Assembly: GCA_963707485.1 (NCBI GenBank)
Contig: CAVPQS010000046.1
Location: forward strand, 2,434-66,433
Length of the DNA: 64,000 bases
Direction: 5' to 3'
DNA from: an uncultured bacterium
GTDB lineage: Bacteria; Zixibacteria; MSB-5A5; CAIYYT01
How positions within the stretch are numbered: position 1 is the stretch's first letter; every line of letters begins with the position of its first letter. Positions 1-30,498 of the stretch are shown here, piece after piece. The notes below the pieces were generated by a model that made no database searches, was not told where the DNA came from, and saw nothing but the letters and a program-made list of their open reading frames with translations. A program made the position numbers and the translations under genes.

Positions 1-591
1 GCGAGTACGAATCACCATGGTCAGGGGCTGCGACCACAAATTCGTCGCGCGCAAGTTTAAGCGCATCGTCGACTGGGAGAAATCGGCATCACCGTTGGTG
101 CGGTCGTGCTGGGTCATCCACTGCAAGGCAGCGGAACCGTATATGCGCGAGGCATTCGCCGAGTTGCGATTGGGTTGCTTACGCGAAGCCGTTGCCGGAA
201 CCGCAGTCGAATCGGAAGTCAATGTGTCGGCAGCAACAACGGCACTCGCCCGCTCGACTCTACTGATTACGCTGACGAATTGACCGGCTTTCAACTCCGT
301 GTCGCCGCCAACAATTTTACACGATGCTGAATGATCTGAGGCATAGGCGACTTCGAGGATAACGGAGAAGCCGTCGCCGCTTTGGATTCCGAGGCGATCG
401 CCGGGCAAAAGTCCGTCGGCCTTACCGCCTTCGAGATAAATTCGATCAACGGAGCGATATTTGATACGGTATTGCGTGGGCAGAGTTGAATCCTGTGCAC
501 GGGACGGAACCGACATGACGCCTATAAGGGCCAGTGCGAAGTAAATGGTAGATTTTGAACACAGATTCCGCAGAGTGAAAGTAATCGACAC
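1..591 (-). CDS. Secreted hypothetical protein, 3'-truncated at the window edge. It lies immediately downstream of the giant cytochrome and may be an outer-membrane beta-barrel or porin-like protein.
   Basis: I hand-translated the minus strand from ATG at 516 to position 1 and found no stop in 172 codons, so the gene continues past the window. Extending upstream in the same frame to GTG 589-591 gives a signal-peptide-like N-terminus (RNLCSKSTIYFALALIGVMSVPSRAQ). That codon sits directly after the cytochrome's TAG stop at 595-597. The distal part has alternating hydrophobic patterns (LNLRATNLW, LTMVIRTR) typical of beta-strands. The ORF is absent from the supplied track because no stop codon lies within the window. 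Confidence 0.4.
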   Translation of the reverse strand, partial: MSITFTLRNLCSKSTIYFALALIGVMSVPSRAQDSTLPTQYRIKYRSVDRIYLEGGKADGLLPGDRLGIQSGDGFSVILEVAYASDHSASCKIVGGDTELKAGQFVSVISRVERASAVVAADTLTSDSTAVPATASRKQPNRNSANASRIYGSAALQWMTQHDRTNGDADFSQSTMRLNLRATNLWSQPLTMVIRTR

Positions 592-594
592 TAG

Positions 595-3500
595 CTATTC
601 GCTTCCATCTGGATGACAGTTGAGGCATGCGGTACTCTGCCAAGTGTAGCCGGACACTTCTCGATGATCATTGTTCATATCCGTTTGATTGTGCTCATGA
701 CAGAAAATGCACTCGAAAACTGCATAATTCGACGAATTGACGTGGCAATCGGCGCAGGTATCCCACTTTTCCCGATGTTTGCCGGAATAGATCGGGAAGT
801 ACTGAGAGTCATGGTTCCAATTTGCCGGCGACCAAGCGCTGGTTGTGTGGCAGCTTTGGCACTCGGTTGGGAAATTGGCAGCCTGGTGATCGGGGTCGGT
901 GGCGCCGTCGTAAGCGGACTGGTGGCACGAGTAGCACAACATCGGCGTATTGACGTAGCCACCGGAATGACAATCGAGGCAGAGTAAGCCGACATGCGCC
1001 CCGGTCAACGGGAAGTTCGTGGCGCTGTGATTGAAAGTCGCCGGCGACCAAGCGGAGGTCGAGTGGCAATCATTACACAGATGGGAGAAGGCATTTGTGA
1101 CGTGATTCGGGTCAGTTACGCCGGTGAAGTCGCCCTGATGGCAACTGTAGCAAGCCGTCGGCGTGTTGGTGTAGCCGGTGGAATGGCAGGCAAGGCACTG
1201 GAGACTGGCATGGGCGCCGGTAAGCGGGAAACTTGTCGTGGTGTGATTAAATGTTGCCGGCGACCAGGCCGAAGTCGTGTGGCACGTCACGCAGTTATGG
1301 TCGAAATTATTCGCCGCATGGTTGGGGTCAGTCGCTGACGCGAAATCACCGGAGTGGCATGAGAAACAGGCGGTCGACGTATTGGTGTAACCTGTCGCAT
1401 GACAAGTCAGGCACTGGAGCCCGGCATGTCCGCCGGTCAGCGGGAATTGCGTCTGATTGTGATCGAAGGTCGCCGGTTCCCACGCAGTTGTGCCGTGGCA
1501 ATTGGTGCAAAGGTGGTCAAAGTTGTTGGTCACGTGATTCGGATCAGTGACCGACGTGAAGTCCGCGGAATGACAGCCGAAGCAGGTTTGATCGGTTCCG
1601 GCATAAGTCTGCAAATGACACGAAATGCATTGCAGCGAGGTGTGCGCGCCGACCAAGATGAAACCGGTCGAAGTGTGATTCCAGTTGGCGGGCGCCCAAG
1701 CGGAAGTCGCATGGCAACTCGCGCAGTCGTCAGAGAATGCGGCCTGGACGTGATTGGGATTAGTAGCTGATGTGACATCGGATTGATGGCACGAAATGCA
1801 TGTACTCGACGTGTTCGTGTAGCCGCCAACATGGCAAGTCACGCAAGCAACACTGCTGTGAGCGCCGGTAAGCGGGAAGTCGGTATTGCTGTGGTTGAAT
1901 GAACTCGGAGCCCAAGCTGACGTCGAGTGGCAAGTGGTGCAATCGTGATCGAAATTATTCTGCACGTGATTGGGCTCAGTTGCCGAAGCGAAATCGCCCT
2001 GATGGCAATCGAAGCATAGGCTCGGCGTATTGGTGTACCCGGTCGCATGGCAGGAAATACAAGCGAGAGAGGTGTGGGCGCCGGTCAAGTTGAAGCCGGT
2101 CTGGCTGTGGTCAAAATCGGCCGGTTCCCAAGCTGACGTCGAGTGGCAAGTGGTGCAATCGTGATCGAAATTATTCTGCACATGATTGGGCTCAGTTGCC
2201 GAAGTGAAATCGCCCTGATGGCAATCGAAGCATAGGCTCGGCGTATTGGTGTACCCGGTCGCATGGCAGGAAATACAAGCGAGAGAGGTGTGGGCGCCGG
2301 TCAAGTTGAAGCCGGTCTGGCTGTGGTCAAAATCGGCCGGTTCCCAAGCTGACGTCGAGTGGCAAGTGGTGCAATCGTGATCGAAATTATTCTGCACGTG
2401 ATTGGGCTCAGTTGCCGAAGTGAAGTCGCCCTGATGGCAATCGAAGCATAGGCTCGGCGTATTCGTGTATCCGCTGGCGTGACAGGAGATACAAGCGAGC
2501 GAAGTGTGGGCGCCGGTTAAGTTGAAGCCGGTCTGGCTGTGGTCAAAATCGGCCGGTTCCCAAGCTGACGTCGAGTGGCAAGTGGTGCAATCGTGATCGA
2601 AATTATTCTGCACATGATTCGGCTCGGTGGCCGAGGTGAAGTCGCCCTGATGGCAATCGAAGCATAGGCTCGGCGTATTCGTGTATCCGGTCGCATGACA
2701 GGAGATGCATGTCGTTGAAGTGTGTGCCCCTGTCAGGACGAATCCCGTAGTGCTGTGATCAAAGCTGCTGGGCGACCAGGCGGCAGTTGAGTGACAAGTG
2801 GTGCAATCGTGATCGAAATTATTCTGCACGTGATTGGGCTCAGTTGCCGAAGCGAAATCGCCCTGATGGCAATCGAAACATAACGTTGGCGTATTGGTGT
2901 ACCCGGTCGCATGACAGGAAATACATGTCGCTGTCGTATGGGCACCGGTCAATACAAAGCCGGTGGTGTTGTGATCAAAGCTGCTGGGCGACCAGGCGGA
3001 TGTCGAGTGACAGGAAGTGCAATCGTGATCAAAGTTGTTGGCAACGTGATTGGGATCGGTTGTCGAAGTGAAGTCACCGGTGTGGCAACTATAACATTGC
3101 GTGGAAGTCCCGGTGTAACCACTACTGTGACAGGAAAGACAGGCAAGCGCCTGATGCGCGCCGGTCAAGGCAAATTGCGTTTGATTGTGATCGAAGGTCG
3201 TCGGCGACCAGGAGAAATTAGTATGGCAGGTGAGGCAATTGTGATCGAAGTTGCTCGCCTCGTGGTCGGGGTCGTCTGCCTGTGCAAAGTCTCCGGAATG
3301 ACAGGAGAAACATAGCGGCGAGGTATCGGCATATCCGGCGCTATGGCAAGACTGGCATTGCAGGCCAACATGGGCGCCCTCGAGAGGGAAGCCGGTCAGT
3401 GTATGGTCGTATCCCTGCGGATCGACCGGAACCCAGGCAGTCGTATTGTGGCAACCGGCGCATTGATGGCTTAGACCGTTGGTGACGTGGTTAGGGTCGG

Positions 3501-4875
3501 AGGCAGCGGCAAAGACAACCTGGTGGCAAGCATAACAGTCATTGACAGTATTGGCATAGCCGGCGCTGTGGCACGATTGACAATCGACGTCGATGTGTGC
3601 GCCGTTGATTGCGAATCCAGTCTGGTCGTGGTCGAATTCAGCCGGCTGCCAGGCGGTCGTGGTGTGGCAAGTAATGCAATCATGGCTGAAGTCAGCCGAG
3701 ACATGGTCGGGATTGTTCGTAGCGGTGAAGCTTGCGCTGTGGCAAGAGAAACAATCCGTGGGCGTGCTGACGTAGCCGGTGCTGTGGCAGCTTTGGCATT
3801 CAAGCGGTCGATGGGCGCCGGTGAGCGCGAAATTCGTAGCATCGTGATTAAAGCTTGCCGGCTCCCAGGCATTTAGATTGTGGCAGGTGCGGCAATCGTG
3901 ATCAAAATTTCCGGCTGTGTGGTCCGGTTCTTTGGCTTGCGCAAAGGCGGTATTATGGCAGCTAAAGCAATCGGTCGCCGTTCCGGAGTAAGTGTCACTG
4001 TGGCAATCCTGGCACTGGACGGTAGCATGCGCACCTTCAAGAGCAAAAGATGTCAGGGAGTGGTCAAATGCCGCCGGAGTCCAGGCAGTCATTTTGTGGC
4101 ACTGGCTGCAATCCTGTGAGAAGTTGGCTGCTTCGTGATCCGGGTCTGGTGCGCTGAGATAATCTGTATTGTGGCAAGAGTAGCAATCCGTTGGCGTGCC
4201 GACGAACTGGGTAGCGTGGCACGAGGCGCAATCGAGGCCGATATGCGCGCCTTCGAGAATCGGTGTGGGCGGATGGTCAAATTTCGCACCGGACCAATCT
4301 AAGGCAGTTGAGCGATGACACTGAACGCAGTCGGCGCTGAATCCGGCGAGGACGTGGTTGGGATCTTCGGTCGAGGCGAAGTCACTTTCGTGGCAAGATT
4401 GACACTCGGGCGAAGTCCCTGCGTACTGGTCGCTTAACTGGCCCTGATGGCAGGATTGGCAATCGGCAATCGCGTGGGCTCCCATGAGGGCAAATCCGCG
4501 AGTGGCATGAATTTCGAAAGTTTCCTGCTCGTTTTGCCAGCCGCGAGTTGTGTGGCAATTTTGACAAAGGGAGCCAAGTTGTCCGCTGTGGGGATCGGCG
4601 TGACAGTTAGCGCAATCTTCGGCGACGTTTGCGAATGCCAGATCGTTATGGCAAGCCATGCACTTGACTTGCTTATGCTTACCGGAGAGTGGAAAGCCGG
4701 TTTGCTCGTGAGGGAACGGTTTGTCCGTTCTCATCTGGGTCCAGCCGCCGGTAGAATGGCAGGTCGCGCAATCAAACTTGATGTCACCGTGCGGGTTATC
4801 ACCCTGGGCGAGAGTTGTGATTGTGAGTCCGGTAGTGAAAGCAATTGTCAGACATACTCTTAACAGAGCAATCAT
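595..4875 (-). CDS. Giant secreted multiheme c-type cytochrome, 1426 aa, about 58 CXXCH motifs, built from about 19 repeats of a 72-aa triheme unit.
   Basis: The supplied translation has an N-terminal signal peptide (MIALLRVCLTIAFTTGLTITTLAQG). I counted about 58 CXXCH heme-binding motifs by hand. A recurring ~72-aa unit has the pattern FDH-x-TGF-x-LTGAH-x4-C-x-SCH-x-GY-x-T-x3-CF-x-CH-x-DF-x5-PNHV-x3-F-x-DC-x2-CH-x3-AW-x-P. Confidence 0.9.
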   Translation of the reverse strand: MIALLRVCLTIAFTTGLTITTLAQGDNPHGDIKFDCATCHSTGGWTQMRTDKPFPHEQTGFPLSGKHKQVKCMACHNDLAFANVAEDCANCHADPHSGQLGSLCQNCHTTRGWQNEQETFEIHATRGFALMGAHAIADCQSCHQGQLSDQYAGTSPECQSCHESDFASTEDPNHVLAGFSADCVQCHRSTALDWSGAKFDHPPTPILEGAHIGLDCASCHATQFVGTPTDCYSCHNTDYLSAPDPDHEAANFSQDCSQCHKMTAWTPAAFDHSLTSFALEGAHATVQCQDCHSDTYSGTATDCFSCHNTAFAQAKEPDHTAGNFDHDCRTCHNLNAWEPASFNHDATNFALTGAHRPLECQSCHSTGYVSTPTDCFSCHSASFTATNNPDHVSADFSHDCITCHTTTAWQPAEFDHDQTGFAINGAHIDVDCQSCHSAGYANTVNDCYACHQVVFAAASDPNHVTNGLSHQCAGCHNTTAWVPVDPQGYDHTLTGFPLEGAHVGLQCQSCHSAGYADTSPLCFSCHSGDFAQADDPDHEASNFDHNCLTCHTNFSWSPTTFDHNQTQFALTGAHQALACLSCHSSGYTGTSTQCYSCHTGDFTSTTDPNHVANNFDHDCTSCHSTSAWSPSSFDHNTTGFVLTGAHTTATCISCHATGYTNTPTLCFDCHQGDFASATEPNHVQNNFDHDCTTCHSTAAWSPSSFDHSTTGFVLTGAHTSTTCISCHATGYTNTPSLCFDCHQGDFTSATEPNHVQNNFDHDCTTCHSTSAWEPADFDHSQTGFNLTGAHTSLACISCHASGYTNTPSLCFDCHQGDFTSATEPNHVQNNFDHDCTTCHSTSAWEPADFDHSQTGFNLTGAHTSLACISCHATGYTNTPSLCFDCHQGDFTSATEPNHVQNNFDHDCTTCHSTSAWEPADFDHSQTGFNLTGAHTSLACISCHATGYTNTPSLCFDCHQGDFASATEPNHVQNNFDHDCTTCHSTSAWAPSSFNHSNTDFPLTGAHSSVACVTCHVGGYTNTSSTCISCHQSDVTSATNPNHVQAAFSDDCASCHATSAWAPANWNHTSTGFILVGAHTSLQCISCHLQTYAGTDQTCFGCHSADFTSVTDPNHVTNNFDHLCTNCHGTTAWEPATFDHNQTQFPLTGGHAGLQCLTCHATGYTNTSTACFSCHSGDFASATDPNHAANNFDHNCVTCHTTSAWSPATFNHTTTSFPLTGAHASLQCLACHSTGYTNTPTACYSCHQGDFTGVTDPNHVTNAFSHLCNDCHSTSAWSPATFNHSATNFPLTGAHVGLLCLDCHSGGYVNTPMLCYSCHQSAYDGATDPDHQAANFPTECQSCHTTSAWSPANWNHDSQYFPIYSGKHREKWDTCADCHVNSSNYAVFECIFCHEHNQTDMNNDHREVSGYTWQSTACLNCHPDGSE
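1890..2990. repeat. Near-identical 216-bp tandem repeats, about 5 copies, inside the giant cytochrome gene. Each copy encodes one 72-aa triheme unit.
   Basis: Copies start near 1912, 2128, 2344, 2560 and 2776 at 216-bp spacing. They differ by only a few substitutions. More degenerate copies flank the array across most of 700..4400. Confidence 0.8.
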
Positions 4876-4889
4876 GTCACAGTCCAGTA

Positions 4890-6596
4890 TTAGAGATCAC
4901 CGGTCTTACTATCATGGCAACTATTGCAGTCCGTCTTTAATGGTTTGTATCGGACTAAAACGGTTGATTCTTCAATGACATTTTTGTGACATTCGCCACA
5001 GGGTACACGAGCGTGCGCGCCTTCAAGACGATAACGCGAATCACGGTCATGGTTAAATTTTGATGCCTTCCAATTATCGGTGGTATGGCAACGCTCACAA
5101 ACGGTCGCCCCAGCCACGACAAACTGACCTCGGTGAATATCAATATGACAATCGTTGCAGTTACTTGGCAGTAGCGCGAAAGTCAGCATTGATACATTCG
5201 TTCTATCATTTTTGTTCCCGTGACAGTCCAAACATTTTGCCGTGACATGTTTTCCAATAAGTGGAAATTTTGTGGAATCGTGGGCAAAGGTGGACTCGCT
5301 CCAACTCTGGACCGAGTGACAACTTTCGCAGCCGCCGGCCTGTACCCACTTGTCTGCCTTACCGCTGTGTGGATCCTTGTGGCAGGTCTTGCAGGCTGAT
5401 TGTTCAAACGTGAAGCGGTATTCGCGCGGGGATTTTCCCGGCGGCGAGCTTATGTGACAAGCATCACATGGGACGGCCAAATGCGCGCCCTTGAGCGGAT
5501 AAGAAGAACTGTCGTGCTGTTCCACTGTGAATATTCCGGGACGGAATCCATCTACGTTATGGCAGCGCTCGCATTTCGGTCCGCCGGGGCTCTTGGCAAA
5601 TGCGCCTTGATGGAAATCCTTGTGGCAGTCGCTGCAGAGACTAAACGCGAGTGTCTTACGCGGTTCTTCCTGCTTGTGGCATTTTGCGCAGACGAGCGGT
5701 TTATGCATACCGAGCAGCGGAAAGCGCGTTCGGCTGTGATCGAAACTGTTGTTGTCGACCGACCGCCAACCGTTGACGTTGTGGCAACTGGCACAGTTCG
5801 GTCCCAATCTGCCGACATGAGGGTCTTTATGGCAGGAGCTGCATTCGGAGAATTGAAGTCCAGTGAACTTCCGGTAGGAAGTGTCGGCGACGTTAGCGGG
5901 GTCGCTCACAGTCGGGTGGCACTTGGCGCACGCCACCTGCACGTGGAGCCCGGCAAGCGCGTATTTGGCTTTTTGATGGTCAAACGCTGCGGCCGGTTTC
6001 CAGGATGCGTTAGAGTGGCACGACTCGCAGGTTGAGGCGACCTGACCGCGGTGCTCATCGAAATGGCAGCTTTTGCAGGCGGTCGACAGGCCCTGGTAGG
6101 TGCGCGCCGGGTCCTTTTGTGCGTCGCCTTCGCGAAATTCGGGTGGGAGATTTTTTGCTGTATGACACTGGCGGCATTGCAGCGGTTTATGTGCGCCGGT
6201 GAGTTCGTATCCGGTTAGATTATGATCAAAGGCGGAGTCGCCGTCTTTCCAGTAGACGAGATCGAAATCACGCCCGTGATGTTCGACGTGGCATTCCTCG
6301 CAGGCGTTGTATTTGTTGCGTCCATGCAGACCCGTACTTGATTCAAGTTGTTTCTTAACTATGGTGTGGCAGTTCAGGCAATTCGGGGCGATATGCGTTT
6401 CGTCAGCGCCATGGCAGGACTTGCAATTGTCAAGACCTTCCAGATGTGCGTGGGCTTTGGAAAGATCGCCGGGCGAGAGTTGTGCAATTGCCGGGTTAAT
6501 ACCGGCGATCAAGAGCAACACGAAGGAGAAAAGGAATGCGCGAATATGAAACCGCCGATTCGCAATGCGGGCGAAATGCAAGGGGTGTCTGGACAT
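4890..6596 (-). CDS. Multiheme c-type cytochrome, 568 aa, about 20 CXXCH, secreted or membrane-anchored.
   Basis: There is a hydrophobic N-terminal signal or anchor (FLFSFVLLLIAGINPAIAQ). I counted about 20 CXXCH motifs, including CKSCH, CLNCH, CEECH and CRQCH. The stop lies 14 nt upstream of the 58-heme cytochrome start on the same strand. Confidence 0.9.
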   Translation of the reverse strand: MSRHPLHFARIANRRFHIRAFLFSFVLLLIAGINPAIAQLSPGDLSKAHAHLEGLDNCKSCHGADETHIAPNCLNCHTIVKKQLESSTGLHGRNKYNACEECHVEHHGRDFDLVYWKDGDSAFDHNLTGYELTGAHKPLQCRQCHTAKNLPPEFREGDAQKDPARTYQGLSTACKSCHFDEHRGQVASTCESCHSNASWKPAAAFDHQKAKYALAGLHVQVACAKCHPTVSDPANVADTSYRKFTGLQFSECSSCHKDPHVGRLGPNCASCHNVNGWRSVDNNSFDHSRTRFPLLGMHKPLVCAKCHKQEEPRKTLAFSLCSDCHKDFHQGAFAKSPGGPKCERCHNVDGFRPGIFTVEQHDSSSYPLKGAHLAVPCDACHISSPPGKSPREYRFTFEQSACKTCHKDPHSGKADKWVQAGGCESCHSVQSWSESTFAHDSTKFPLIGKHVTAKCLDCHGNKNDRTNVSMLTFALLPSNCNDCHIDIHRGQFVVAGATVCERCHTTDNWKASKFNHDRDSRYRLEGAHARVPCGECHKNVIEESTVLVRYKPLKTDCNSCHDSKTGDL

Positions 6597-7457
6597 TTAG
6601 GAAAGTCCCGAAAATCCAGTCCAAACCGCAACACCTATATGAATGCCCATGATCAAATACATGATAATTGCAAAGGGCTTGTGGATGACGTGCCAGTAGT
6701 GGAAGACCTCGCGCGTACGGTCGAGCATTTCGATTCGGCGGGCAAGCGCGGAGCGTTCAAGTGCAAGTTTGACAATTAGTTTGGCGCTCTTGTCGGAGAC
6801 TTTTACAGTCTTCTTCAATTCGCGCGTCAGTTTGCTAGTTGCGAACGGGCGAGTTAAATCGGAAATGAACATTCGGATTAAGAGGGTGAGAAACGAACTT
6901 TCGGCCCCCGTGCCGCGTTTTGCGAGTGTATCAATATGAGCAAGCTGTTCCGGCTGGAGATCGAACTGTTCTTGAAGCGTTAAGGTTGACTGAAGCATCT
7001 GCTTGTCGATTTCCGAAAGCGACAATTCATCGCCCTCCTGATTGCGAGGAATCTGGATGTACAGGTATCGCCCAAGGTAACCGCTAATGGCGACCGCAAC
7101 CATTGACCAGAAGGCGACGGCAATCAGGCCCTGCACCTTAAATGATGAATGCAAAATGATGAAGAGCGGTCCGCAGACGCCAAGATAAATGTGCAATTTC
7201 AACCAGTTTCGGAGGGTGATTTTTTTGCCCAGCAGTTTGGTACGCTTACGAAGAGAGTAGGTCAGCATGAGGATCATCATGGCGGCGCCGATGTAGCCAT
7301 AGGCGATACCACGGCTGCCGGCCGGTCGCAGTTGGCGGTAATCCTCATGATGCGGGCGTTCGGTATATGGAGTATTGTAGTAGTTAAATCCCGCAATAAG
7401 GCAATAGACGATTGCAATTAGAGTTACGACATACAGAATGACCAGCGGACGTTTCAT
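6597..7457 (-). CDS. Polytopic membrane protein, 286 aa, with His residues in transmembrane helices. It is the first gene of the cytochrome operon and may bind heme b or quinone.
   Basis: It has four N-terminal hydrophobic helices and one C-terminal helix (FHYWHVIHKPFAIIMYLIMGIHIGVAV). The third helix also carries two His residues (LHIYLGVCGPLFIILH). Its stop directly abuts the ATG of the 20-heme cytochrome, suggesting translational coupling. I do not recognise a family. Confidence 0.55.
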   Translation of the reverse strand: MKRPLVILYVVTLIAIVYCLIAGFNYYNTPYTERPHHEDYRQLRPAGSRGIAYGYIGAAMMILMLTYSLRKRTKLLGKKITLRNWLKLHIYLGVCGPLFIILHSSFKVQGLIAVAFWSMVAVAISGYLGRYLYIQIPRNQEGDELSLSEIDKQMLQSTLTLQEQFDLQPEQLAHIDTLAKRGTGAESSFLTLLIRMFISDLTRPFATSKLTRELKKTVKVSDKSAKLIVKLALERSALARRIEMLDRTREVFHYWHVIHKPFAIIMYLIMGIHIGVAVWTGFSGLS

Positions 7458-7579
7458 GAGTTCCCATAATAAAATAATTCGATTAGAATTTTAAACGCGA
7501 TTCGTTCTACAAGTATATCGACTTAAAGGTTCATTAAACTGAGCGGTGGCAGGGAGTAAACTAAAGCGGACAAGATCTC

Positions 7580-8194
7580 TTACTTTTTGACGTATTTCCA
7601 GTTTCGCGATTTCCCCTCATGCATCCAGGCTATGGCCTGCTCCAGTCGTCGTTCGCGTGTTTCTTCAGATTTGGCCTCGACGATCCATTCGATGTATTCG
7701 CGCTTGTGGCTTGCGCTGAAGCCGTTGAAAACGGCAAATGCCCTCTTATCTTTGCGCAGAGCAGTCATAAAGAAAGCGGGGATTTCTAATTCTTTCGTGG
7801 TTCTCGGTTTTGAACGAGCGGGATTTTTGACTCCATCGTCGTTTAGTTTTGCCGCCTTTTTAATCAGCATCAGGATTGTCCTGTCGGCGGGCAGGTCATC
7901 GAGTGACGTTATTCTGCCGAAATGCCCCATCGCTGCCTCATTCTTTGCTTTGGCGGCCGCATCAGATCCAAAAACCAATGCGCCATTCCAGAAGCCGAAT
8001 GCGCAGTGCTGCTTGAACGATGCCATGCTGCAGAGCATTCCTTTGTAGTCGAAATGCGGGAAGCTCCACTTCATAGTTTCTTCACAATCCGGGCAGGCGG
8101 TATGGACGAGTTTGCGCAGGCGGTTGAGAATAGGTTTTGCGAAGTCGGCGGAGTTCTTAATGTAGGCGTCTACGCGCGGATCTTTCTTTCCCAT
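7580..8194 (-). CDS. DUF1801/YdeI-YdhG family protein.
   Basis: The N-terminal DUF1801-like region contains the AKPILNRLRKLVHTACPDCEETMKWSFPHFDYKGMLC motif. The C-terminal region is YdeI/OmpD-associated-like (EYIEWIVEAKSEETRERRLEQAIAWM). Identification is by family resemblance from memory. Confidence 0.6.
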   Translation of the reverse strand: MGKKDPRVDAYIKNSADFAKPILNRLRKLVHTACPDCEETMKWSFPHFDYKGMLCSMASFKQHCAFGFWNGALVFGSDAAAKAKNEAAMGHFGRITSLDDLPADRTILMLIKKAAKLNDDGVKNPARSKPRTTKELEIPAFFMTALRKDKRAFAVFNGFSASHKREYIEWIVEAKSEETRERRLEQAIAWMHEGKSRNWKYVKK

Positions 8195-8235
8195 TGAATG
8201 ATCTCTCTCAATCTCCGAATCGTGAACGGCAATCG

Positions 8236-8832
8236 TTAGTTCGTGCGCATCCAGCTAATCCGATACCCCTCGGTGATACCAAGCTTGTCGACATAACCGG
8301 CGTTGAGTTCAAGCACGTATTGTGCCGGCGAAGTTGACGGATAGCTTGTCTCGGCAAAAGGCGTCGTATTTTTGTGAATAGTCACGATTTCGTCTTTAGA
8401 GTTGATGAATAGCATATCGAGCGGGAGGATTGTGTTCTTCATCCAGAAGGCTTGCATGTCATCGTAAGGAAAGATGAAAAACATTCCCTGATTCTCGCCC
8501 ATCGTATTTCGAAACATCAGGCCGATACGACGTTCGTCAGTATTTTCCGCCAGTTCGATGTCTATTGTCGACACATAGATACCGTCGGGCGTGTAGAAGC
8601 TGAGCATGCCCTCTTTCAGGAATTCGGTGCGCATCGGCGCAGCCAAGCCGGTGGAGGCATTGTCGGTTGAGTTCGCGGCGGTGTTTCTCTTAGCGTCACG
8701 AGTCAAAAAGACTACTGCAGCAATCGCGGCAAGAGCGATTACGGCGAAAATCGAATACCGAGTGATGTTCGCATTTGAGGGCTTGGACGGCGAAGGTTTT
8801 GATTTGTTGCCCGAACGCATAGATTTTGCCAC
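8236..8832 (-). CDS. DUF192 (COG1430) family protein with an N-terminal membrane anchor.
   Basis: An N-terminal TM segment (IFAVIALAAIAAVVFL) is followed by a DUF192-like core (IELAENTDERRIGLMFR ... PLDMLFIN). Confidence 0.55.
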   Translation of the reverse strand: MAKSMRSGNKSKPSPSKPSNANITRYSIFAVIALAAIAAVVFLTRDAKRNTAANSTDNASTGLAAPMRTEFLKEGMLSFYTPDGIYVSTIDIELAENTDERRIGLMFRNTMGENQGMFFIFPYDDMQAFWMKNTILPLDMLFINSKDEIVTIHKNTTPFAETSYPSTSPAQYVLELNAGYVDKLGITEGYRISWMRTN

Positions 8833-8932
8833 AATTACGTCCCGAAGAGAATTTTACCGACACTCGAGCGATGACACATATATCAATGTAAACGCGGCGA
8901 ACAATAAGTCAAGAGTTGGCGCACTGACTCTT

Positions 8933-9427
8933 TCATTTTATACGCTGGAAGAAATAATCGACGCCGGCGTCTTTACCCTTGCGCATACCCTCGATGCGGG
9001 CGTGAAGCGAATCCTGCGCGGACCTATGGTAGATGATGCGAGTCGGAAAGTCATGGGACGGATTCTCGAATGTCGTTTTCAGCGAGTCCTGACTAACCAT
9101 TTTGAAATAAACGGGCGCCGGGTTGTGAGCAACATCGGAGATGTAAAACAGACCGGAGTCGGCAGCTTCGATGAGGAGTCTTTCTGAAATTACCGTGTCT
9201 TTACCGCTGACGGTAAAACCAAATCCGCTGAGCTTTGACGGAGTTTCACTGCTCCAATTTTCGAATACGATTTGATCGCCGAGCTTGGCTTCCCATGTGC
9301 CGATGAGCCACGAGAGACGCATCAACGCGACGGTTGCTTGTTTTGCCGAAGAATCAACTTTTGCGGTGTCTGCGACAGCAGCCGACGCCAGATTAGCGGC
9401 GGCGATGAAAAGCAGAAGTAATCTCAC
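8933..9427 (-). CDS. Secreted hypothetical protein, 164 aa.
   Basis: It has a signal peptide (MRLLLLFIAAANLASAAVA) and a WLIGTWE motif. I recognise no confident family. Confidence 0.45.
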   Translation of the reverse strand: MRLLLLFIAAANLASAAVADTAKVDSSAKQATVALMRLSWLIGTWEAKLGDQIVFENWSSETPSKLSGFGFTVSGKDTVISERLLIEAADSGLFYISDVAHNPAPVYFKMVSQDSLKTTFENPSHDFPTRIIYHRSAQDSLHARIEGMRKGKDAGVDYFFQRIK

Positions 9428-9533
9428 ACATAGCTCCTTTCCGTTGCTACAACTTTATCTTGAATATCGTACAAACTATAACAAAGCACAATCGGCAATG
9501 TGCACAAGGATGGACCATTTTATTGGAGGACTG

Positions 9534-10319
9534 ATGAAGACGCTACTTTCGACAATCTGTTTACTGTGTATTTGGGCGATCCCGGTATTTCCCGCGATCA
9601 AGACCGAAGTTGTTGAATACAAGCATGGCGACGCGGCGCTGGAGGGATATCTCGCATACGACGACGCAGTCAAGGGACCAAGGCCGGGCGTATTGGTGAT
9701 TCATCAATGGATGGGGCTAACCGACAACGAAAAGATGCGCGCGACTATGCTCGCAGAATTGGGATATGTCGCATTTGCGGTTGATGTCTATGGAAAGGGA
9801 ATTCGGCCGAAAGACGGCGACGTTGCAGGCGCCGAGGCGGGAAAGTACCGCGAAGACCCGACGCTGTTTCGCGAGCGACTCAATGCCGGACTGCAGACTC
9901 TGCTGAAAAATTCAAATGTCGATGCCAAGCGAGTTGCGGCGATCGGGTACTGCTTTGGCGGCGGCGGAGCATTGGAATTGGCGCGCAGCGGCGCGAATAT
10001 TGCGGGAGTCGTATCGTTCCACGGAAGTCTCACGACCACGATGCCGGCGGCAGCCGGACAAGTGAGGGCAAAAGTGCTGGTCGCGCACGGTGCGGATGAT
10101 CCGTTCGTACCGATGAAAGATGTTGAGGGCTTTCTTGATGAGATGCGAGCGGCCGGAGCAGACTACCAATTTATCGCCTATAGCGGAGCCGTTCACGCCT
10201 TTACCCAGAACGAAGCCGGCAACGACAATTCGAAAGGCGCGGCGTACAATGAAAAAGCCGACAAACGATCCTGGCAGGCGATGAAGGACTTCTTTGCGGA
10301 GATTTTCCAGACGAAGTGA
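9534..10319 (+). CDS. Dienelactone hydrolase family protein, secreted.
   Basis: A GGAGGA Shine-Dalgarno-like motif lies 4 nt upstream of ATG 9534. There is a signal peptide (MKTLLSTICLLCIWAIPVFPA). The alpha/beta-hydrolase DLH fold is supported by the IGYCFGGGGALELA nucleophile-elbow region and the HGADDPFVP/VHAF motifs. The longer ORF-track start at 9285 overlaps the upstream minus-strand gene and has no SD. Confidence 0.8.
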   Translation: MKTLLSTICLLCIWAIPVFPAIKTEVVEYKHGDAALEGYLAYDDAVKGPRPGVLVIHQWMGLTDNEKMRATMLAELGYVAFAVDVYGKGIRPKDGDVAGAEAGKYREDPTLFRERLNAGLQTLLKNSNVDAKRVAAIGYCFGGGGALELARSGANIAGVVSFHGSLTTTMPAAAGQVRAKVLVAHGADDPFVPMKDVEGFLDEMRAAGADYQFIAYSGAVHAFTQNEAGNDNSKGAAYNEKADKRSWQAMKDFFAEIFQTK

Positions 10320-24124: not shown

Positions 24125-27100
24125 CTAGTCCCCGCTCACCGTCAGGGTAAATGGCGACCAGTAGTAAGGGTGCCGATGCCGCAGACGCGGTGAATTTATC
24201 ATTTCCAGTTTTGCGCGGCGCAGCGCTTCAGCATAACCAGATGACAGGTTTTGGTAGAAAGTCTTCATGAACGTGGCTGTGGTAAAGTCCTCGACTTCCC
24301 AGAGTGACACCAACAAATTATGGGCGCCGGCTTGCATGAAAGCCTTGACGAAGCCGTCCATTCCCTCGCTGACATCGAGTTTGCCGCCGCCGGATTCGCA
24401 AGACGACAAGACAACCAGGTCGGCGCTGAGTTTCAGTTCGTCGACTTCCGCCAGAGTCAGATAACTTTCGGCATTAGTCGCGGTGGTGTCATCCGAGAGC
24501 CAGATTTTAGATCGAGCCGGATCGCGATAATTAATCGTCGAGTGGGTCGCGGCGTGAAAGATCCGGTAGTCGGCGAGTCGAAGCCGCAGGAGTTCAGCTT
24601 TGGTGGCAGTTGACGCAGTGAGGATCGTGCAATTATTCGCTCCGAAGATGCCGCAAATCCAATCGACCTCGCGCGCACTGAACGGCAGTTGGCGTTGCTG
24701 CGAGTCTGAGCGAGGATCGGCCAACGCGAGAATGTGCCAGTTTTCGGTGCGCCGGGGCCCAAGTTCCTGTGGTGAAAACAGGAATAGCGAAGGCAAGGCA
24801 GCAACGGCGGCGTATTCGATCAGGTACTTGCCGTCAATCCGGAGCGCTTCAAAGGGCAAGATTGACAAGACGCCATCAGATGAGATAAGAATGCGGTCAA
24901 AGGAATCGGGGACCAGCAATGATTTTGGCAGGAGCAATTGACCGACTTGAGCTGCCGCTGTATATAGACTGTCGAGTAAGCTGTCGTTCTTGATTGACAA
25001 TTGTATCAGACGCATGAATTCGGAGATCGACGGGGTGAGAATCTCCCGTCCAGGCAAGAGCTCAGTCTTGATCTGAGTCTTGCAGATCAGAAGCGCGTAA
25101 CTTTCGTCGGGCGTGAGCAGGTACGAGATCAGGACCGTGCGACTATCGGGAAGTGCAGATTGGAGTCTCATTATTGCAATAGGCTCGGGCGTGTAGACAC
25201 GAACTGCAGCGGCGTTCGCGACACCAGCTTTGAGCCGCAGATCAGACAGTGTTTTCTCGAGGTCGGAAAGTTTCGCAACTTTCGCTTTCACCGATCGCGG
25301 AATTGAGTCATCAGCAAGTGAAGACTCAACTTGCTCAATTTCGCGTAAAAGTTGTCGCTCGCCGGTTTTATTAGGACGATGTTTGGACTCGGGACCTGTA
25401 GAACTGCGTTCGGCGATGATGTCGAGGAGTCCGCGCGACTTGGCTCTTTCGATATAAATCAGCAGCGAGTCATCATAGTCGCGGTTGTTTCCGCTTTGGC
25501 GAATGTGAAAGAGTGTCTTGACCATTTCTTCATACACCGATCGTGCCTGCGATTGAAAGCTTCCGCGCAGTTGTTCATCGGGAATGGACCCGCGTGATTT
25601 CTCTGATCGGGCTATGATTCGCGCAAGGTAACGATAGGCATCGTGCCACCGGCTCTCGTCGATCGCTATGTTCGAATGAATGATGTCGATTTTCTGCGAG
25701 TTGGAATAGGTGCGGCAGGAATCGAGGAGAATCTCTGCGCGCGCCAACAGGTCTTTAGACGCGGAGAGGTCTTTGTTTTCGCGGCTAAAATCGGACCGGA
25801 GACAAAGCAGGTCGATTCGGCGTTGCAGTGTCAACACGCCGGCCTGGAGTGTCGACGCGCTGTCGAGTAATTGAATTGCTTGCCTGTGATTGCCCAGAGC
25901 TTGCTCAATGCGAGCGCGGGCTATCAGCGAATTGCTCAGACCTCGCCTATCGTTGCTGAGTCCGGCAATTTCGGCCGATTTGGCGGCATAGTCGAGAGCG
26001 GCGGTTGTATCACCGACAGCGCAGTACAGTTCGGAAAGATTGCCCAGAGTTTCGCCGGATTGCAGGCGAAGATCGACTTGACGACGAATATCGAGGGCGC
26101 GTTGATAATAGTCGATTGCCGATTCGAGATCGCCGAGCTGCTGATGCAGAGAGCCGAGGTTATGGAAAATTGTCGCCAGAGCCACACGGTTACGCGTTTT
26201 GACTGCCAAGTCTTCCGCCTGCAGGTAGTGCTCAAGTGATTGCGTAAAGTAACCCAGTGAGGACTCAAGTGCGGCATAGTTTTGCAGGACTGCTAAGGCG
26301 AGTCGGTGGCTATTAGCCGCCATCGACGAGCGGACTGCTTCGTCATAGAGCGTTATCGCCGAATCAAGGTCTCCTTTTAGCTCGGCAAGAATCGCTCGGC
26401 AATAAGTTAATCGAACTGGGTCGCTTTTCGCAGGCAATGCAACGCCGAGGGCAGTAGCCTCATCGAACCATTCATTTAGCTGCGAGACCTGCACTTCGCG
26501 TGCAAAGGCTGGTATCATGGTAACGAGCGAAGTGTAAACTGAAGTCGAGTCCTGCAGCGCGCGCCGCAACGCGAGGGATTCTTCGGCAAATCGCCGGGCG
26601 TTGTGTTTGTCGCCGATTGAAAGGTATATGGACGCGATGTTGCTCAGACATTCGGCGACTCCGGCCCGGTCGCCAAGTTCGGCTTTAATCACCCGCGCCG
26701 AGTCAAAGTATGCGCCGGCTTTGATGAATTCCAACTTCTCGCTTAACAGCCTTCCCAAGAGATTGTAACTTCGTGAAAGGGCATCCAGATCACCGATGAG
26801 TCGACTTAGGTTCAAACTTTGATTCAGAATCTTGTCGGCCAATTCGGTGGTCATGCCTCTCGCGGCCGCGTGCTGCCACGAGTTTGCCGCCGAGCTTGAA
26901 TCACCGAATGCGAGAAACTCATTTCCCAGTTCGGCCATCTGGCTGCTATAAATTTCTACCGGTCCCTTGTTTCCGGCCAAGCCTTCAAGATTGGTAGAGA
27001 ATTGCAGTTTGAGCTGGCTGCGAAGCAGGAAGTAATGTTGTTTCCAAGTCTTGAACTTGCTGCATTGGCGGACATAAAAGTCGTCGCCGTATTCAGTTAG

Positions 27101-27379
27101 CACGAAATTTGCAGCTTCTTGTATTTGCTCAAAGAGGACCGTGTCGCCCGTGTCAAAGTAGTTTTCGAGTCCGCGCTGGAGATAGCGGTATAGTTCAAAG
27201 CGACTGCCAAAATCGAGCGAATCGGGCTCGGAGGACGCAAGAGCCGGAGTTGAATTCTGCGTTAGTAGAAATGTCAGGGTCAGCAGCAGGCACTTTAAGA
27301 GCATGATTGGCAATCTACGCCAGAACGGACGCATTGACAAGCGTGATACGGCGAGCCAGAAAATTGACAGCAATGCCAA
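24125..27379 (-). CDS. Secreted TPR-repeat protein with a C-terminal CHAT (caspase-like) domain, 1084 aa.
   Basis: It has a signal peptide (LLLTLTFLLTQNSTPALA) and many TPR-like repeats in the first ~600 aa. The CHAT hallmarks are HAATHS ... LVVLSSCESGGG ... LLVSLWEVEDFTTATFMKTFYQNL. Confidence 0.85.
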   Translation of the reverse strand: MALLSIFWLAVSRLSMRPFWRRLPIMLLKCLLLTLTFLLTQNSTPALASSEPDSLDFGSRFELYRYLQRGLENYFDTGDTVLFEQIQEAANFVLTEYGDDFYVRQCSKFKTWKQHYFLLRSQLKLQFSTNLEGLAGNKGPVEIYSSQMAELGNEFLAFGDSSSAANSWQHAAARGMTTELADKILNQSLNLSRLIGDLDALSRSYNLLGRLLSEKLEFIKAGAYFDSARVIKAELGDRAGVAECLSNIASIYLSIGDKHNARRFAEESLALRRALQDSTSVYTSLVTMIPAFAREVQVSQLNEWFDEATALGVALPAKSDPVRLTYCRAILAELKGDLDSAITLYDEAVRSSMAANSHRLALAVLQNYAALESSLGYFTQSLEHYLQAEDLAVKTRNRVALATIFHNLGSLHQQLGDLESAIDYYQRALDIRRQVDLRLQSGETLGNLSELYCAVGDTTAALDYAAKSAEIAGLSNDRRGLSNSLIARARIEQALGNHRQAIQLLDSASTLQAGVLTLQRRIDLLCLRSDFSRENKDLSASKDLLARAEILLDSCRTYSNSQKIDIIHSNIAIDESRWHDAYRYLARIIARSEKSRGSIPDEQLRGSFQSQARSVYEEMVKTLFHIRQSGNNRDYDDSLLIYIERAKSRGLLDIIAERSSTGPESKHRPNKTGERQLLREIEQVESSLADDSIPRSVKAKVAKLSDLEKTLSDLRLKAGVANAAAVRVYTPEPIAIMRLQSALPDSRTVLISYLLTPDESYALLICKTQIKTELLPGREILTPSISEFMRLIQLSIKNDSLLDSLYTAAAQVGQLLLPKSLLVPDSFDRILISSDGVLSILPFEALRIDGKYLIEYAAVAALPSLFLFSPQELGPRRTENWHILALADPRSDSQQRQLPFSAREVDWICGIFGANNCTILTASTATKAELLRLRLADYRIFHAATHSTINYRDPARSKIWLSDDTTATNAESYLTLAEVDELKLSADLVVLSSCESGGGKLDVSEGMDGFVKAFMQAGAHNLLVSLWEVEDFTTATFMKTFYQNLSSGYAEALRRAKLEMINSPRLRHRHPYYWSPFTLTVSGD

Positions 27380-28726: not shown

Positions 28727-30490
28727 ATGGCAATCAAGACGGTAATGGTTGGTATGGCTACCTGTGGAATCTCCGCCGGCGGCGAAAAAGTATACGAAGC
28801 GTTCCAGAGAGAGCTTCAGGACGGCGCCGATTTCGTTCTCCGCGAAACCGGATGCGTCGGCATGTGCTATCGTGAAGTCCTGGTATCGATCTCCAATGGC
28901 GACGGAGTCAATTATCTCTACGGCGAAGTTACGGCGGATCGCGTCAAGAGAATTGTCAGTGAACACATTCAGGGCGACGCGCCGATTGACGAATGGTTGG
29001 TGTCTGGAGTTGGGCGCGAGGTCGGTTTTTTTGACAAACAAGTGCGAATTGTACTGCGCAACTGCGGCGTAATCGACCCCAGTTCTTTGGAAGAATACAT
29101 TCAGAGCGGCGGCTACCAGGCAATAAGTAAGGTCCTGAAAGAGTTGTCGCCGGAACAAGTAATTAAAGAAGTCCAGATCTCGGGATTACGAGGGCGCGGC
29201 GGCGGTGGATTTCCAACCGGGAAAAAATGGGAGTTGGCGAGAGCCAGCGTCGGCGACAAGAAATATATCATATGCAATGCTGACGAAGGCGATCCGGGCG
29301 CGTTCATGGATCGTTCGGTTCTTGAGGGTGATCCGCACTCGGTTCTCGAAGGAATGATGATCGGCGGATACGCCATCGGCGCCGACGAGGCATACATATA
29401 TTGCCGCGCAGAGTATCCGAAAGCCGTTGCAAGATTGCGGATGGCGATTGCACAAGCCAGGAAGCAGGGGCTGCTCGGCAAAGATATACTTGGCAGCAAG
29501 TTTAGTTTCGATATCAAGGTAAAGGAAGGCGCTGGAGCCTTTGTCTGCGGTGAAGAGACGGCGCTGATTGCTTCGATCGAGGGCCGGCGCGGAATGCCGC
29601 GATTTCGTCCGCCCTTCCCCGCTCAAAAAGGACTGTGGGGCAAACCGACGAGCATTAACAATGTCGAGACATTTGCCAACATCCCGTGGATCATACTCAA
29701 TGGCGGCGCGGCTTACGCAGCTTACGGCACCGACGACAGCAAAGGCACAAAGGTATTCGCGATGGCCGGCAAGGTCAAGCGCACCGGTCTGGTTGAAGTG
29801 CCGATGGGCATCAGCATTAACGACATCATCTATAAAGTCTGCGGCGGCATCGTCGACGACAAGAAGTTCAAGGCCGTGCAAATGGGCGGGCCCTCCGGCG
29901 GATGCATTCCGGCCTCGCTCGGCGAAACCCTGATCGATTACCAGCAAATCAACAAGACGGGCGCGATTATGGGTTCCGGCGGAATGGTCGTGATGGACGA
30001 AACTACCTGCATGGTGGACGTGGCGAAGTTCTTCCTGACGTTTACGCAAGCGGAGTCGTGCGGCAAATGCACGTTCTGCCGAATCGGCACGAAGCGGATG
30101 CTCGAAATACTCGAGAGGATCACCGAGGGCAAGGGTCGCGAAGAAGATCTGGCAACACTCGACCAACTTGGCGAGCAGATCAAGATCGCCTCACTATGCG
30201 GTCTCGGGCAGACGGCGCCGAACCCGGTGCTTTCGACGCTCCGTTATTTCCGCGACGAATATGAGGCGCACATCCTGCGGAAGAAGTGTCCGGCGCACGT
30301 GTGCGCGCCGCTTTTGACTTTCACGATCGACCAAGAAAAATGCAACGGCTGTATGCTTTGTCCACGCTCCTGCCCGTCAAACGCCATACTCGGTGAAAAG
30401 AAAATGCCGCACAGAATATTGCAGGATCTGTGCACTCAGTGTGGCAAGTGCTTCACAGTATGCAACCAAGACGCGGTAATCAAGGACTGA
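28727..30490 (+). CDS. NuoF/HoxF/HndC-like flavoprotein subunit with NAD(H)- and FMN-binding sites and [4Fe-4S] clusters, plus a C-terminal 2x[4Fe-4S] ferredoxin domain.
   Basis: It has the FMN/NADH glycine-rich motifs (GRGGGGFPTGKKW; ICNADEGDPGAFMDR) and a [4Fe-4S] motif (ESCGKCTFCR). A C-terminal ferredoxin is present (CNGCMLCPRSCP ... CTQCGKCFTVC). The start at 28727 overlaps the NuoE-like stop. Confidence 0.85.
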   Translation: MAIKTVMVGMATCGISAGGEKVYEAFQRELQDGADFVLRETGCVGMCYREVLVSISNGDGVNYLYGEVTADRVKRIVSEHIQGDAPIDEWLVSGVGREVGFFDKQVRIVLRNCGVIDPSSLEEYIQSGGYQAISKVLKELSPEQVIKEVQISGLRGRGGGGFPTGKKWELARASVGDKKYIICNADEGDPGAFMDRSVLEGDPHSVLEGMMIGGYAIGADEAYIYCRAEYPKAVARLRMAIAQARKQGLLGKDILGSKFSFDIKVKEGAGAFVCGEETALIASIEGRRGMPRFRPPFPAQKGLWGKPTSINNVETFANIPWIILNGGAAYAAYGTDDSKGTKVFAMAGKVKRTGLVEVPMGISINDIIYKVCGGIVDDKKFKAVQMGGPSGGCIPASLGETLIDYQQINKTGAIMGSGGMVVMDETTCMVDVAKFFLTFTQAESCGKCTFCRIGTKRMLEILERITEGKGREEDLATLDQLGEQIKIASLCGLGQTAPNPVLSTLRYFRDEYEAHILRKKCPAHVCAPLLTFTIDQEKCNGCMLCPRSCPSNAILGEKKMPHRILQDLCTQCGKCFTVCNQDAVIKD

Positions 30491-30498
30491 GGCGATTC

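Follow-up and report, generated by a model that had tools for sequence, protein, structure and literature searches.

Neighboring triheme modules of a 58-heme Zixibacteria cytochrome gene probably exchange DNA at constant copy number

A 64,000-nucleotide stretch of contig CAVPQS010000046.1 (assembly GCA_963707485.1), from an uncultured Zixibacteria bacterium and referred to here as the window, contains a gene for a multiheme c-type cytochrome of 1426 amino acids with 58 CxxCH heme-binding motifs. Five of its 16 triheme modules, modules 7-11, are much more alike at the DNA level than the others. We consider it likely that these modules are kept alike by ongoing intragenic recombination at a constant count, that the protein is the wire of an electron conduit resembling the PCC3 type, and that a public 46-heme copy of the same gene, here called L108, is an assembly collapse.

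The cytochrome gene is laid out as a signal-like N-terminus, a seven-heme head, 16 tandem triheme modules, and a three-heme tail, with 24.6 amino acids per heme overall. The modules are 72 amino acids long (one is 75), with the CxxCH motifs spaced at 15, 25, and 32 residues, and 72 amino acids correspond to a DNA period of 216 bp. Each module has three CxxCH motifs and three additional histidines that are invariant across modules, and based on these extra histidines all hemes of the modules are probably bis-His ligated. The protein matched the Pfam families Cytochrome_C7 (E=3.9e-45) and Cytochrom_c3_2 (E=8e-38). An exact look-up of the 1426-amino acid protein returned no record, and PDB sequence searches with the whole protein and with a three-module profile gave no significant match. 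The gene and the repeated elements within it are as follows.

595-4875, minus strand: multiheme c-type cytochrome gene, 1426 amino acids, 58 CxxCH (open reading frame and translation, heme count)
1876-2955, minus strand: homogenized block, modules 7-11 (amino acids 641-1000), five in-frame 216-bp units (Tandem Repeats Finder, identity matrices)
2795-2877, minus strand: 83-bp perfect repeat, copy in unit 7 (exact run at offset 4 x 216; left edge of an 864-bp segment)
1931-2013, minus strand: second copy of the 83-bp perfect repeat, within unit 11 (bounds the 864-bp segment on the right)
2206-2397, minus strand: 192-bp perfect repeat, first copy, at the junction of units 9 and 10 (exact run at offset 216)
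1990-2181, minus strand: 192-bp perfect repeat, second copy, at the junction of units 10 and 11 (exact run at offset 216)

The similarity of the five units was far beyond that expected by chance. Tandem Repeats Finder (TRF) reported an array at 1911-2925 with a period of 216 bp, 4.7 copies, 91% matches, and 0% indels, within a single minus-strand open reading frame and at the place given in the initial annotation; a scan of the 64-kb window for tandem arrays found no other of sizeable length. In the codon and module register, units 7-11 were 78-94% identical (79, 90, 94, and 93% for adjacent pairs). Every other pair of modules in the gene was 46-72% identical, in agreement with the annotation's description of the other units as diverged. 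Pairs of random 216-nt windows from the same gene had a mean identity of 26%, with a 99.9th percentile of 41%. The initial annotation had also put all five units above 90% identity. In the register that it used (unit starts at 1912, 2128, 2344, 2560, and 2776), three units were mutually 94.4-99.1% identical, but comparisons involving either of the other two gave only 77.8-83.3%; the ten pairs averaged 85.8%, and the units flanking the block were 55-68% identical. The figure is therefore correct for three to four units, or for all five against the TRF consensus (91%), but not for all five pairwise.

The differences among the five units were arranged as a mosaic interrupted by perfect tracts. 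Tracts of 192, 101, 95, and 83 nt were common to units of the block. The two 192-bp tracts are longer than the usual short-read k-mers and than 150-nt reads, are separated by only 24 nt, and remain repeated at k=141. They would form a loop through unit 10 in an assembly graph, so that short reads cannot fix the copy number of this unit. Unit 10 had no private nucleotides and was distinguished only by its unique combination 99T/103A. The 62 variable sites of the block were spatially ordered: sites 1-30 grouped units 7 and 8 against 9, 10, and 11; sites 36-99 grouped units 8 and 9 against 7, 10, and 11; and sites 103-207 grouped units 8, 9, and 10 against 7 and 11. Among units 7-11, 77 of the 153 informative site pairs failed the four-gamete test, and in each of the ten pairs of units the differences were more clustered than expected at random (permutation P≤0.017, mostly <0.001). 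Most of these differences were at third codon positions and synonymous; units 9 and 10, for example, had 11 synonymous codon differences and one non-synonymous. The synonymous divergence (dS) among units 8-11 was 0.10-0.53, whereas that of other adjacent module pairs ranged from 1.3 to saturated. This patchwise similarity, which includes synonymous sites, argues for exchange of DNA between units and not for selection on the protein.

The number of modules in the block was the same in all orthologous genes found. A protein search gave more than 3400 relatives of the cytochrome, the closest being 77% identical and 1424-1425 amino acids long, and a scan of metagenomes for strain-level relatives found none closer than 63%. 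Five complete orthologous genes (L001, L002, L003, L005, and L011; 77-78% amino acid identity) were recovered from four further assemblies by a genome scan. L003 and L011 are two haplotypes of one metagenome-assembled genome (MAG) from the Nanopore-based Microflora Danica project (MFD00032.bin.2.168). The four intact orthologs, L001, L002, L003, and L005, each had 58 hemes and 16 standard modules, as does the window gene (W in the unit comparisons). The reading frame of L011 was broken by frameshifts, and L011 was colinear with L003 without any 216-bp indel. All five kept the five-module block. Of the processes that the annotation had proposed, recent expansion is thus contradicted. The comparison with related genomes that it had called for gave a constant block count in the five orthologs and differences of whole modules in the wider family.

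The units of the block resembled each other more than they resembled their counterparts in the orthologs. The identity of 78-94% among units 7-11 within W compared with 66-77% to the positional orthologs in the four intact genes (73-77% for best matches). Outside the block, the best DNA match was the positional ortholog for ten of the 11 W modules (68-77%, versus 57-68% for the best paralog). The marginal exception was W module 6, which matched unit 7 at 72% and its own ortholog at 68%. In the orthologous genes, the positional ortholog was likewise the best match of every module outside the block. The units that were homogenized differed between genes: units 8-11 in W, 7-8 in L001 (92%), 7-8 (98%) and 9 in L002, 9-10 in L003 (87%), and 7-8 in L005 (86%). 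Based on these comparisons and on the mosaic that fails the four-gamete test, the block is under concerted evolution at constant copy number, as the annotation had offered as one possibility, with each lineage homogenizing different pairs. Synonymous sites were saturated between W and its orthologs. The count was nevertheless stable at 58 hemes in this clade despite exchange between modules, which suggests selection on length.

The two haplotypes L003 and L011 are colinear copies of the whole gene cluster in one Nanopore MAG, with 93% DNA identity. The identity was patchy (79-100% per 216-nt window, and only 83-85% in units 7-8), and the frame-breaking changes in L011 were single-base indels. 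One possibility is that two strains were binned together and have recombined with each other; another is that the indels are leftover errors of Nanopore sequencing.

A public contig with otherwise the same sequence lacked exactly four units of the block. The membrane protein encoded in the window upstream of the cytochromes was 100% identical to a 'Candidatus Zixiibacteriota bacterium' protein with two NCBI accessions; one of its carriers is GCA_049664025.1, on contig JBATEL010000121.1 (8034 bp, locus L108). L108 shares its membrane protein and its 20-heme cytochrome with the window, but its variable cytochrome has 1138 amino acids and 46 hemes compared with 1426 and 58. It was 100% identical to window positions 7752-2795 and 2013-1, flanks that total 6.9 kb, and differed from the window only by the absence of exactly 864 bp (4 x 216, four modules). 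The junction fell within the perfect 83-bp tract that units 7 (2877-2795) and 11 (2013-1931) have in common, and its position is ambiguous over these 83 bp. We judge L108 to be an assembly collapse because it is a fragmentary contig, its junction is a shortcut in graphs with k≤83, and all orthologs have five modules.

Other contigs ended in or near the same region. Five further contigs, one 100%-identical contig from Logan and four relatives at 85-86% amino acid identity, enter the cytochrome gene from its 5' side and stop at the equivalents of W residues 574, 667, 700, 893, and 934. The Logan contig (L115) ends at window position 2875, 27 nt short of the k=31 unitig stop expected from the window repeats; as a sign of a multi-unit form in the reads, this end is suggestive only. 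The initial annotation had warned that the array is easily mis-assembled, and these breaks together with L108 bear that out. In the truncated gene copies (L111, L114, and L115), public gene calls substitute several antisense open reading frames of 50-270 amino acids for the gene at the contig ends, so that truncated copies are invisible in protein databases. Long antisense open reading frames are also found inside the window gene, for example at 2911-3315 on the plus strand.

Heme number in the wider family changed almost always in steps of three. We compiled 68 loci with a gene for a 20-heme cytochrome before the variable one, containing 57 non-redundant complete variable genes. Heme numbers of the form 3n+1 (13, 16, 19, and so on up to 61) were found in 54 of these 57, and one further variable gene had 67 hemes. 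The exceptions, with 21, 24, and 27 hemes, all look truncated. The 20-heme gene always preceded the variable one among the loci examined, and its own count was constant at 20. A cultured bacterium, Draconibacterium aestuarii (L036), carries a variable gene with 28 hemes. Several pairs of relatives differed by clean indels of repeat units.

L043 and L088: 22 versus 19 hemes, 98.4% amino acid identity, 73-amino acid indel
L042 and L043: 19 versus 22 hemes, 92.5% amino acid identity, 73-amino acid indel
L009 and L010: 52 versus 55 hemes, 84.7% amino acid identity, 72-amino acid indel
L039 and L065: 43 versus 40 hemes, 76.7% amino acid identity, 72-amino acid indel
L016 and L059: 49 versus 34 hemes, 94.5% amino acid identity, 371-amino acid indel

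The annotation's suggestion that length could be tuned one triheme module at a time thus holds at the level of the family, where one-module indels separate relatives of 77-98% identity. A module pair with at least 85% DNA identity was present in 29 of 86 family genes, mostly long ones, and one closed chromosome has module pairs at 100% DNA identity. The closed or long-read genomes of the family include OZ245062.1, OY781436.1, OZ223471.1, and the MFD MAGs. Near-identical module blocks therefore appear to be typical of long family members and not special to the window gene. In Bacteroidota relatives (L016 versus L059; also L015, L062, L067, and L068), the repeat unit can be a 'supermodule' of 371 amino acids and 15 hemes, which includes a copy of the C-terminal domain.

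In the explanation that we favor, neighboring modules would exchange DNA by gene conversion and-or compensated unequal crossing-over, while the clade keeps a constant module count, both for the block and for the protein as a whole. The perfect tracts of 83-192 bp would serve as a substrate for recombination in the cell and also as the point at which short-read assemblers collapse or break. The same kind of recombination would add or remove whole modules across the family and so change heme number in steps of three. The 58-heme protein would be a long wire, probably outer or extracellular, in a PCC3-like conduit that leads from an inner-membrane b-type protein to the constant 20-heme cytochrome and on to the variable cytochrome, together with a putative outer-membrane protein. 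Several points weigh against this explanation. In L003, the best matches appear to be displaced by one unit, as would follow from a single loss and a single duplication, and gene conversion is inseparable from paired loss and gain by unequal crossing-over. The graph loop at unit 10 could hide extra identical copies, and the window's count of 58 is that of the assembled sequence. L108 could be a genuine deletion allele arising by recombination in the same 83-bp tract. As to the conduit, cellular location and the role in electron transfer are read from gene context; a confident AlphaFold2 model of three modules (predicted local distance difference test, pLDDT, 84) matched no PDB structure; and the downstream 'porin' and its full-length homologs matched no Pfam or NCBIfam family, with OMP_b-brl reaching only E=0.17.

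Two other explanations question what the window and L108 represent. The 58- and 46-heme forms could be a true population polymorphism, the shorter one having arisen when the 83-bp tracts of units 7 and 11 recombined unequally. A junction within a perfect direct repeat is what homologous recombination in vivo would give, and clean module indels separate relatives of 92-98% identity in other lineages of the family. However, collapse of a de Bruijn graph would give the same junction, the 6.9 kb of flanks are 100% identical and give no independent sign of a second strain, and every intact gene in the clade encodes at least 58 hemes. The end of the Logan contig, which comes from a third run, coincides with the entrance to the tract, as would be expected if reads contained the tract in more than one context. 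We regard a polymorphism as unlikely. Conversely, it could be the window that is wrong, with the five-unit block over-expanded or chimeric between strains and the real gene having, for example, 46 hemes or more than 58. This would fit the replacement of five modules by one hybrid module between identical flanks in L108, the lack of a private nucleotide in unit 10 between two 192-bp tracts that form a graph loop, and the breaks of other assemblies at the block. On the other hand, the five orthologs come from separate assemblies, including two Nanopore haplotypes, and have five block modules, with 58 hemes in the intact four. The reading frame and all heme ligands are intact in every unit of the window gene, the differences between units are mostly synonymous, and the adjacent pair of single-nucleotide variants that is unique to unit 10 must exist in reads. 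The contradicting contig, L108, is the 8-kb fragment whose junction a graph with k≤83 would produce. We give mis-assembly of the window gene only a small chance.

The remaining two explanations accept the sequence and differ on how the units became alike. Near-identical units could be young duplicates that raised the number of modules, since neighboring units are highly identical at the DNA level and gains of modules are seen elsewhere in the family (52 versus 55, 19 versus 22, and 40 versus 43 hemes). A recent net expansion is very improbable, and we rejected it, because it is contradicted by the conserved module count: positions 7-11 are occupied in all orthologs, and 16 standard modules and 58 hemes are found also in orthologs at which synonymous sites are saturated. 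Selection on the protein alone, by convergence or purification and without exchange of DNA, could account for heme-binding and ligand residues that are invariant in all modules. It does not account for homogenized synonymous sites (with dS of at least 1.3 elsewhere in the gene), for perfect tracts of 83-192 bp, or for mosaic partitions that fail the four-gamete test. We find this explanation scarcely credible and rejected protein-level convergence as contradicted by the identity at synonymous sites.

A bolder version of the polymorphism is that a single Zixibacteria population carries genuine 58- and 46-heme alleles, generated by recombination in the 83-bp tracts, and that the block is a built-in length switch. 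We think this unlikely. If it were true, concerted evolution would keep the modules recombinable, the reach of the wire would shift in three-heme steps of approximately 3 nm each over ecological time, and the spread of 13-67 hemes across the family would record such switching over the long term.

The GC content of the cytochrome gene (595-4875) was approximately 55-57%, compared with 47-50% in neighboring genes at 6600-9600, and GC skew was raised evenly across the gene (+0.16 to +0.22 on the plus strand). Both are probably due to the composition of the repeats, which are rich in Cys, His, Thr, and Ala, and not to foreign origin.

The genes next to the cytochrome gene form a conserved cluster with it.

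4890-6596, minus strand: 568-amino acid cytochrome with 20 CxxCH, the upstream partner (open reading frame, heme count)
6597-7457, minus strand: 286-amino acid inner-membrane protein, putative di-heme b-type cytochrome (motifs and hydropathy)
1-594, minus strand: 5' part of a conserved downstream gene, putative outer-membrane barrel (translation; cut by the window edge)

The 286-amino acid protein has two WX3HX13H motifs, WLKLHIYLGVCGPLFIILH from residue 85 (W85) and WHVIHKPFAIIMYLIMGIH from residue 255 (W255), SGYLG at residue 125, approximately five hydrophobic segments, and weak matches to DUF4405 and Ferric_reduct. Its gene is conserved beside the cytochromes in 77 loci, and the named organisms among the best 120 matches of a search with this protein belong to the FCB group. 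The downstream gene follows the variable cytochrome in 63 loci (by tblastn) and is present at full length in L108 (6373-7956). Its product is 527-557 amino acids long in relatives, with a signal-like N-terminus and a C-terminal Phe; full-length homologs (L001, L025, L036, L012, L043, and L098) end in RF, KF, or VF. A search with the 198-amino acid fragment encoded in the window found two short fragments only. A fifth constant member of the cluster, beyond the left edge of the window, is a 446-amino acid Fe-S/FAD flavoprotein with two 4Fe-4S motifs and a pyridine-nucleotide-disulfide oxidoreductase domain. Its gene is at 11977-13317 in L001 and is also present in approximately 80 other loci; the order of genes varies between clades. 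The five-gene association was present in 63-82 loci. The flavoprotein and the ferric-reductase-like membrane protein suggest a possible split route of the NOX/FRE type from cytoplasmic NAD(P)H to periplasmic cytochromes.

The cluster appears PCC3-like by its layout, motifs, and heme numbers, without being a proven member. PCC3 clusters were defined in Alpha-, Beta-, and Gammaproteobacteria (He, Barco, Emerson & Roden 2017, Front Microbiol 8:1584, PMC5566968). They combine a porin with a repeat-rich 'extracellular' cytochrome of very large size (median of 34 hemes, up to 85, with 22-39 amino acids per heme), a periplasmic cytochrome of approximately 21 hemes, and a membrane protein of approximately 300 amino acids with five transmembrane helices, SGxxG on the fourth, and WX3HX13H on the third and fifth. 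The window cluster has the same gene order, with two cytochromes, a membrane protein, and a putative outer-membrane protein in the porin position. Its 286-amino acid protein agrees in size, in its approximately five helices, in SGxxG, and in the double WX3HX13H; its 568-amino acid partner has 20 hemes compared with approximately 21; and the density of its large cytochrome, which has 16 tandem modules, is within the published range. In both, the heme number of the large cytochrome is variable (13-67 in relatives of the window gene) and that of the smaller one nearly constant. The differences from the published description are that the window cluster comes from a Zixibacteria MAG and its relatives carry labels such as Ignavibacteria, Bacteroidota, and Calditrichota; that the window-type cluster has the flavoprotein as a constant fifth member; and that its outer-membrane candidate (approximately 530-557 amino acids) matches no porin family. 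The accessible text of He et al. 2017 mentions neither a 3n+1 heme series nor concerted evolution of a module block.

The modular protein also resembles, in part, smaller 'nanowire' cytochromes. In the Geobacter GSU1996/OmcQ group, these are dodecaheme proteins of four triheme c7-like domains, for which an origin by duplication and concatenation of c7 has been proposed (PMC11492766). Like them, the window protein is a single polypeptide of tandem triheme modules of approximately 70-80 amino acids each, and it matched the Pfam model PF14522 (Cytochrome_C7) with 152 bits against a cut-off of 24.8, although this model is broad ('c7 and related'). Unlike them, it has 16 modules in place of four, three conserved extra histidines in each module, and no match in sequence or fold to PDB structures. 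GSU1996 domains contain a His-Met heme, and their hemes are spaced in an order different from the 15/25/32 of the window protein. The 12 hemes of GSU1996 extend over approximately 12 nm. By analogy, an extended chain of 58 hemes could reach some 50-60 nm, with one module contributing an estimated 3 nm or so.

Two adjacent multiheme cytochrome genes with 11 and 17 CxxCH are found elsewhere in the window, at 55993-57960 and 58026-60656, both on the minus strand. Their products also match the b-type family Ni_hydr_CYTB (residues 527-612 and 613-791, respectively). They resemble quinol oxidoreductases of the CbcL type and are candidate inner-membrane entry points to the same electron pathway. Other genes in the window include one for a 1276-amino acid fusion protein with 2Fe-2S, 4Fe-4S, FAD/NAD(P)-binding, and molybdopterin oxidoreductase domains (30430-34260, plus strand), one for a 1084-amino acid protein with TPR repeats and a C-terminal CHAT (caspase-like) domain (24125-27379, minus strand), and an Eco57I/MmeI-type restriction-modification methylase gene (48077-51556, minus strand). 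Adjoining the methylase gene and divergent from it is an open reading frame of 1193 amino acids without a Pfam match (52305-55886, plus strand). A scan of the 64-kb window for tRNA genes found none.

Parts of this picture were known. Large cytochromes that are homologous are known to differ in heme number (Arbour et al. 2020, PMC7399161; PMC5566968), modular 'grafting and pruning' is an established view (Soares et al. 2022, cited in PMC11492766), and PMC5566968 notes repeats within PCC3 cytochromes. Variable heme numbers, PCC3 repeats, and modular gain and loss are therefore not new. The work of Arbour et al. and Soares et al. describes a pattern at the protein level in Burkholderiales and Anaerolineales, whereas the present comparison concerns a mechanism at the DNA level and the collapse of an assembly. 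What we believe to be new is the demonstration, from DNA, that a defined block evolves in concert while its copy number stays constant, the 3n+1 series beside an invariant 20-heme partner in FCB-group bacteria, and a concrete example of what appears to be a collapsed cytochrome copy in GenBank.

Published heme counts of giant cytochromes commonly come from short-read MAGs. Because the same sequence is public as a 58-heme and as a 46-heme protein, and because another five contigs are interrupted at or within the block, such lengths need confirmation by long reads. The family also offers a natural series in which a constant 20-heme cytochrome is paired with a variable partner of 13-67 hemes, in which the effect of wire length on extracellular electron transfer could be tested. 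Relatives that are 98% identical and one module apart make this question of wire length directly testable.

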